A DNA stretch of 64,000 bases. It comes from Escherichia coli. Lineage in GTDB: Bacteria > Pseudomonadota > Gammaproteobacteria > Enterobacterales > Enterobacteriaceae. Positions 36,201 to 36,717 of this stretch are shown one piece after another. The position numbers and the translations under genes are program-made. How positions within the stretch are numbered: position 1 is the stretch's first letter; each line of letters opens with the position of its first letter. The stretch is taken from NCBI RefSeq assembly GCF_030013595.1, contig NZ_CP122768.1; one strand, written 5' to 3'. Below the pieces are notes generated by a model. That model ran no database searches. It had not been told where the DNA came from and saw only the letters and a list, made by a program, of their open reading frames with translations.

Positions 36201-36717
36201 GAGTTCCCCGCGCCAGCGGGGATAAACCGCCGCTCGCGCTCGGACTGAAACCAGGCCTTGCGAGTTCCCCGCGCCAGCGGGGATAAACCGGTCGCCAGAA
36301 CATCACACACGGCGGCGCGCTGGAGTTCCCCGCGCCAGCGGGGATAAACCGGTGCACACGTTGTATTTGTGCTGCCTATGCCAGAGTTCCCCGCGCCAGC
36401 GGGGATAAACCGGGCTTTACGCCCAAAAAGGATTGAATGCAGATGAGTTCCCCGCGCCAGCGGGGATAAACCGGGCTTTACGCCCAAAAAGGATTGAATG
36501 CAGATGAGTTCCCCGCGCCAGCGGGGATAAACCGTGCAGGCGGGGAAAAAACGCCGTTTTGTGGCTGAGTTCCCCGCGCCAGCGGGGATAAACCGGCATT
36601 GCTGTCTCAAATAATTAATCCGGGGAAGAGTTCCCCGCGCCAGCGGGGATAAACCGCGTTTAGCTCCGCAATGCTGGATATCACTGATGAGTTCCCCGCG
36701 TCAGCGGGGATAAACCA
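36201..36717 (+). CRISPR. Type I-E CRISPR array (CRISPR2.1-like, queE-ygcE locus): 9 repeats of 29 bp, 8 spacers of 32 bp
   Basis: Repeat GAGTTCCCCGCGCCAGCGGGGATAAACCG at 36201, 36262, 36323, 36384, 36445, 36506, 36567, 36628; terminal degenerate repeat at 36689 (C13T, G29A); perfect 61-bp periodicity. Confidence 0.95.

Follow-up and report, generated by a model that had tools for sequence, protein, structure and literature searches.

The type I-E CRISPR array in the stretch of Escherichia coli DNA analyzed here (64,000 nucleotides, referred to as the window in the following) contains two identical neighboring repeat-spacer units which in all likelihood represent a real tandem duplication of a single 61-bp unit in an orphan CRISPR2.3 array, and one that probably arose without the participation of Cas proteins. 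The first copy occupies positions 36384-36444 (repeat 36384-36412, spacer 36413-36444) and the second positions 36445-36505 (repeat 36445-36473, spacer 36474-36505), both on the plus strand, and the two 61-nt units are 100% identical to each other. Their common 32-nt spacer, designated w4 (GGCTTTACGCCCAAAAAGGATTGAATGCAGAT), is confined within the window to exactly these two places, and 100 dinucleotide-preserving shuffles yielded not a single match to it. In front of each copy stands a perfect 29-nt repeat (GAGTTCCCCGCGCCAGCGGGGATAAACCG). Numbered from the leader, the w4 copies are spacers 4 and 5 of eight and thus sit in the interior of the array. Identical spacers at just these positions, each with a perfect repeat, had already been noted in the initial annotation, and both the identity of the units and the exact positions of w4 confirm the observation.

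A third repeat (36506-36534, plus strand) closes a perfectly 61-periodic tract of the form R-S-R-S-R that extends over 151 bp (36384-36534), and this closing repeat is one of three at which misalignment could occur. As the second w4 copy, too, is followed by a repeat, the breakpoints can be placed only somewhere within the repeats, and as judged from the sequence the two w4 units cannot be told apart as to which is the "new" one. As single-stranded DNA, the repeat folds into a 7-bp GC-rich hairpin with a calculated free energy of −9.1 kcal/mol (z = −3.7).

The complete array spans positions 36201-36717 on the plus strand and consists of nine repeats of 29 nt and eight 32-nt spacers; read from the leader on the left, the spacers follow each other as w1 w2 w3 w4 w4 w6 w7 w8. 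All repeats follow each other at a spacing of 61 nt, which is also the period returned by Tandem Repeats Finder; eight of them are perfect copies of the type-2 sequence, while the last one is degenerate and carries two substitutions. The first repeat is directly preceded by an AT-rich leader (36100-36200, plus strand) that is the same in two related genomes, HCP5S3_I2 (L001) and GCA_900448395.1 (L019). New spacers would enter at this leader end; the far end is the one with the degenerate terminal repeat. The array is flanked by queE/ygcF (35191-35862; TIGR04322, 369 bits) on one side and by ygcE, a gene for an FGGY kinase (37295-38773), on the other. Degenerate repeats on the plus strand at 37190-37245, about 0.5 kb downstream of CRISPR2.3, are a CRISPR2.2 remnant. 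Array and remnant together are the E. coli CRISPR-II locus, which is defined as CRISPR2.3 with its leader plus CRISPR2.2 between ygcE and ygcF (PMC3903273). Repeat and spacer lengths as well as the location between ygcE and ygcF/queE are those of type I-E CRISPR2.3. Rfam searches of the window at gathering thresholds matched no CRISPR family and returned only CsrB and sok, so that the classification rests on repeat sequence, on position and on the annotation of the homologous locus: the same position is annotated as "CRISPR" in thousands of E. coli genomes, and relatives of the window strain annotate the same flanking genes together with a CRISPR feature.

The organism is E. coli, and the pyrG-eno segment of the window is 100% identical to that of several pig isolates. 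Two further features of the window may be mentioned. A full-length gene for the CsrB sRNA (16721-17080, plus strand; Rfam RF00018, 383 bits) is situated near barA, as expected in E. coli. The gene ygcG for a TPM-domain protein (34025-34942, minus strand) is split into two open reading frames of 141 and 152 amino acids; it is annotated as a pseudogene with an internal stop in HCP5S3_I2, in K_EC180 and in ETEC strains.

Related arrays were sought with w4 as the query in 5426 complete E. coli genomes, two of which (HCP5S3_I2 and LCP30S3_I5) carry this spacer, once each. A query made of the joined spacers revealed 30 genomes that share at least one spacer with the window. The arrays that were parsed comprise representatives of these spacer matches, one chromosome that is mislabelled in the collection of plasmids and ten contigs obtained by exact lookup of the YgcE protein; this allele is common (1281 blocks), and since places with the same neighboring proteins are collapsed in the lookup, the members of the clone are not fully listed by it. 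The direct single-copy counterpart is GCA_900448395.1, with the order w1 w2 w3 w4 w6 w7 w8. In pairwise alignment, its leader, array, trailer and CRISPR2.2 remnant are the same as those of the window except for one clean gap of 61 bp, and when positions 36445-36505 are taken out of the window the two sequences agree without a single mismatch over 6.8 kb. Flank alignments of about 4.1 kb to the left and about 5.5 kb to the right likewise contain no SNP for this genome and none for GCA_030347985.1 (L016), the array of which reads w1 w2 w3 w6 w7 w8 with an IS421 insertion in the repeat after w7. For GCA_013896775.1 (L015; w3 w4 w6' w7 w8) there is one SNP per flank. HCP5S3_I2, with w3 w4 w6 w7 w8, is more distant and shows five mismatches in 1.7 kb over ygcE. 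All carriers of w4 other than the window (GCA_900448395.1, HCP5S3_I2, LCP30S3_I5 and GCA_013896775.1) have it once, and in GCA_900448395.1, GCA_013896775.1 and HCP5S3_I2 the single copy stands between the same neighbors as the pair does in the window. The single-copy form, which the initial annotation had suggested looking for in related strains, thus exists, and the view that normal acquisition at the leader end does not produce such a pair is upheld by the internal position of the units, by the occurrence of the leader-side spacers w1, w2 and w3 in other strains and by the single w4 of the other carriers.

The two-copy form is present only in the window and is nested among single-copy arrays (L019, L015 and L001) and a zero-copy array (L016), which marks it as derived; on the arrays compared, the w4 duplication is private to the window strain. 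Further members of the array family are those of K_EC180 and O139:H1 W13-16 (x2 w1 w2 x3 w3 w8 in both), and other arrays seen read x2 w1 w2 x3 w8, x2 x3 w3 w8, x2 w1 w8 and x4 w6 w7 w8 x5. The family as a whole is consistent with one ancestral order, which would have been x2 w1 w2 x3 w3 w4 w6 w7 w8.

Open reading frames that span the junctions of the two-copy array, three in number, are absent from a collection of 15 billion proteins, and the corresponding frame of the single-copy array is on record there once, from the GCA_900448395.1 assembly. A spurious reading frame has been called across the array from translated repeats (window 36179-36610, minus strand; L019 6175-6534) and is recognizable by the motifs FIPAGAGNS, VYPRWRGEL and GLSPLARGT. 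The version from GCA_900448395.1 has been deposited as STE70652.1, "Domain of uncharacterised function (DUF2825)". This array-spanning frame is an annotation artefact of the CRISPR repeats.

Other changes are apparent at the same locus. In K_EC180, O139:H1 W13-16, an O169:H41 strain and the gull isolate 64A:C, w2 and w3 are separated by spacer x3 (GCCACTAACCAGCCAGACTCACAATAAATGCA). This spacer is missing in GCA_900448395.1, in GCA_030347985.1 and in the window (36322-36352, between w2 and w3), which on the basis of the array comparison indicates an internal deletion of a single unit. Spacer x1 of CRISPR2.2 (GACTTGTTATCATTTTTTAAGTTGTCGAACTT) is retained in the relatives L001-L009 and in most of the others. 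It is missing in the window (37190-37245; compare L001 3225-3330), where the remnant is exactly one 61-bp unit shorter, and its loss is common to the window, L019 and L016. The loss of x1 counts as a second event between repeats at this locus, and x3 and x1 together make two further changes of unit size in the lineage of the window. Furthermore, GCA_030347985.1 (contigs L016 and L024 are from this same assembly), which has no w4 and bears the IS421 copy in the repeat after w7, has an additional element of the IS3 family that lies between cysH and cysI.

The partner cas-E operon and CRISPR2.1, which belong to a complete system, would be expected between cysH and iap. K_EC180, a more distant strain with an array of the same family, has cas3-casA-casB-cas7e-cas5e-cas6e-cas1e-cas2e and a CRISPR at this site. 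The order in the window is cysH (52198-53085), sok/hok (Rfam sok match at 53208-53365), IS421 and iap (54978-56015), and no cas open reading frame and no CRISPR2.1 are found between 53085 and 54978. Outside the CRISPR2.3 array, there is no I-E repeat in the entire 64-kb window. Since the cas-E operon and CRISPR2.1 are missing from their canonical site, the array has to be regarded as an orphan, while its identity as a CRISPR array remains unaffected. The IS421 element (IS4 family; 53522-54863, minus strand, 1.34 kb) was recognized by its transposase (NF033592, 132.7 bits) and is annotated as IS421 in relatives. The sequences on both sides of it match the hok-iap junction of HCP5S3_I2, which has no IS there, at 100% identity and with an overlap of 12 bp; this indicates that IS421 entered a pre-existing cas-less junction and generated a 12-bp target duplication. 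The same IS-free cas-less junction is also base-identical in Logan contig L023, all of the 24 contigs read with the Iap allele of the window are cas-less, and IS421 resides at the hok-iap site in two displayed contexts, L024 (GCA_030347985.1) and L026 (GCA_021649415.1). The cas-E operon is also absent from GCA_030347985.1 and HCP5S3_I2. Absence of cas genes is meant here as absence from the canonical site, for the window strain within the window.

One explanation that does not involve any biological event, and that the initial annotation named as an alternative, is that the strain possesses a single w4 unit and that its periodic array was expanded by the assembler or polisher. The two copies rest on one assembly, the zero-SNP relative GCA_900448395.1 has one copy, and neither the 5426 complete genomes nor the protein collection provide another record of the two-copy form. 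In addition, the assembly quality of CRISPR arrays is a recognized concern (PMC4524480). We nevertheless consider an artefact improbable, as the extra unit is exact, free of errors and in register at 61 bp. On perfect tandem copies assemblers usually err by collapse rather than by expansion. Furthermore, the 64-kb window is contiguous through the 1.34-kb IS421 element, whereas a relative's short-read contig, L026, ends about 98 bp into this element. This contiguity suggests that the source assembly is a long-read or finished one, in which case the reads would span the tract of 151 bp.

If the duplication is real, as we believe, the question arises as to when it occurred. The cas-less junction of the window is common to HCP5S3_I2, a more distant relative with a single w4, and the simplest history is therefore a duplication that followed the loss of the cas genes and took place without Cas1-Cas2. 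We regard this order of events as the most likely one; it draws on parsimony and takes the shared junction to be inherited and not acquired by transfer. It is conceivable that a w4 duplication of greater age was lost more than once. Such losses are implied if an ancestor that still had cas genes took up one protospacer twice in succession by means of Cas1-Cas2 at the leader end of its array, with w3, w2 and w1 added later and one copy lost again in each of the relatives. The ancestral lineage did have cas genes, as exemplified by K_EC180, hot protospacers can be re-sampled so that the uptake of one spacer twice is conceivable (PMC8047081), and units present in duplicate may disappear more rapidly than others (PMC11472070). 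However, the scenario demands at least three independent collapses (in L019, in L015 and in the lineage of L001/HCP5S3_I2) in place of one gain, and one of these collapses would have to fall in L019, which differs from the window by zero SNPs. Moreover, reacquisitions account for 1% of multi-copy spacers as opposed to 86% for simple duplications (PMC11472070), and the "hot" source is without support because no w4 protospacer is present in the collections searched. Such a double acquisition is accordingly judged very unlikely.

Acquisition by type I-E systems prefers an AAG motif. The sequence in front of w4 ends with ...ACCG instead, neither cas1 nor cas2 is present at the canonical site, a two-copy donor is lacking among the 5426 complete E. 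coli genomes and the flanks, with zero SNPs relative to the single-copy relative, give no sign of imported DNA, all of which leaves ectopic internal integration of an array-derived prespacer by Cas1-Cas2, or import of a duplicated segment by homologous recombination, as the least probable of the explanations considered, although both ectopic integration and inter-array recombination are on record (PMC8047081; PMC4524480).

A duplication from within the array, for which neither acquisition nor import is needed, is by far the likeliest explanation and would have proceeded as follows. A nascent strand or sister chromosome on which repeat-w4-repeat had just been copied would re-pair with the repeat one unit back, and the w4 unit would as a consequence be copied or exchanged a second time. 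The homology for such re-pairing would be supplied by the 29-bp repeats, and their GC-rich hairpin may favor pausing and mispairing. The proposed history would begin with the loss of the cas operon, continue with repeat-to-repeat drift of the array and end with the duplication of w4 on the terminal branch leading to the window strain. The arrays of the cas-less group, to which L001 and L016 belong and L015 and L019 are presumed to belong, differ from each other by unit deletions, the w4 duplication, one SNP in a spacer and one IS insertion, and every spacer of these four relatives falls within the ancestral set. In the initial annotation, the pair was ascribed to slippage or recombination among repeats and taken as a sign of array dynamics while adaptation is inactive, and both parts of this interpretation agree with these findings: a single clean 61-bp difference from GCA_900448395.1 without flank SNPs and the many unit deletions in the array family fit the former, and the latter is supported by the missing I-E cas operon and CRISPR2.1 at cysH-iap, by the cas-less junction common to a single-copy relative and by the fact that none of the cas-less relatives examined contains a spacer from outside the ancestral set.

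Slippage and unequal exchange would yield the same sequence product and cannot be told apart on that basis. In the literature, deletions and duplications of units are ascribed to replication misalignment, and a RecA-independent route is deemed likelier for repeats so short and close, although direct tests are lacking (PMC8047081; PMC11472070) and the RecA requirement for native CRISPR arrays is so far without a direct test (PMC8047081). Once formed, duplicated units may collapse quickly, as they offer 90 bp of direct homology (PMC11472070). Among these nearly clonal genomes, without SNPs in about 8 kb of flank, the copy number of w4 is zero (GCA_030347985.1), one (GCA_900448395.1) or two (window). 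It is tempting to see the zero-copy and two-copy arrays as the two reciprocal outcomes of a single unequal exchange between sister chromosomes at the repeats on either side of w4, or w4 as a local hotspot of misalignment. If true, the former would amount to evidence from nature that the route was one of crossover and not of one-sided replication slippage. We give this idea little credence; two independent events explain the presence of zero, one and two w4 copies equally well.

A target for w4 was not detected among 50,697 phage records and 72,556 plasmid records, scans of IMG/VR, JGI metagenomes and GTDB-representative genomes for it were empty, and the w4 sequence is not quoted in the searchable literature. 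The notion that the second copy was selected as an extra dose of a useful crRNA has no basis, given that no target was found, and is moot without Cascade. As the canonical cas site encodes neither Cas6e nor Cascade, the second w4 copy should be without function, and it is probably neutral. Of the spacers in the array, w1 (36230-36261) is the sole one for which a target is detectable; it matches the gene for the small terminase subunit (DUF1441) of Stx-converting lambdoid phages and of phage VT1-Sakai in 29 of its 32 bases.

Neither the phenomenon nor the locus is new, and the duplication of w4 adds one more case: duplications of units are well documented for CRISPR arrays, those of E. coli I-E included, as a minority of events. 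In the two I-E arrays of E. coli, replicated spacers make up 4.6-4.7% of the unique spacers (Kupczok et al., 2015, PMC4524480), and about 3% of the spacers in CRISPRCasdb are found more than once (SpacerPlacer, 2024, PMC11472070). Spacers that occur more than once within a group of related arrays are simple duplications in 86% of the cases and reacquisitions in 1% (PMC11472070). "Duplication" is a standard event in parsimony tools (PMC10457644), and a reporter for I-E integration in E. coli was built specifically such that unit duplications are excluded (PMC3737337). The case described here shares with the documented ones (Garrett, 2021, PMC8047081; PMC11472070; PMC4524480) the internal, in-register position, the discovery by way of related arrays and the accompanying unit deletions. 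It does not differ from them in kind; what is added is a background shown to be devoid of the I-E cas operon and a zero-SNP counterpart with a single copy. The situation in the window, where palindromic direct repeats of 29 bp recur 61 bp apart and both duplication and deletion are seen, would also resemble what PMC8047081 and PMC11472070 cite (Lovett, 2004; Bzymek and Lovett, 2001) on rearrangements that take place independently of RecA between direct repeats of short length and small distance.

The locus likewise has close parallels. Cas-less E. coli strains that have kept CRISPR2.3 are already known (Almendros et al., 2014, PMC3903273), and the window resembles the CRISPR-II strains lacking cas-E in position, repeat and leader of the array and in the CRISPR2.2 remnant 0.5 kb away. 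The annotations of BL21, REL606 and strain C agree with the window in the absence of cas-E, the retention of sok/hok and the location of IS421 beside iap. In contrast to the window, which is free of any I-E repeat at cysH-iap, E. coli B-type strains still have a CRISPR annotation there.

By itself, the duplication of w4 matters little, and its added value is modest and consists of a clean polarity and of a background in which the lack of the I-E cas operon can be demonstrated. In general terms, unit duplications affect CRISPR-based strain typing and the reconstruction of array histories, and they flag spots at which short-read assemblies may be unreliable. Unit duplication independent of Cas1-Cas2 is generally assumed, but direct evidence for it is thin (PMC8047081). 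The array described here would provide a clean natural example in which units continue to be gained and lost after the loss of the cas genes, so that Cas1-Cas2 would not be needed for the duplication of a unit.
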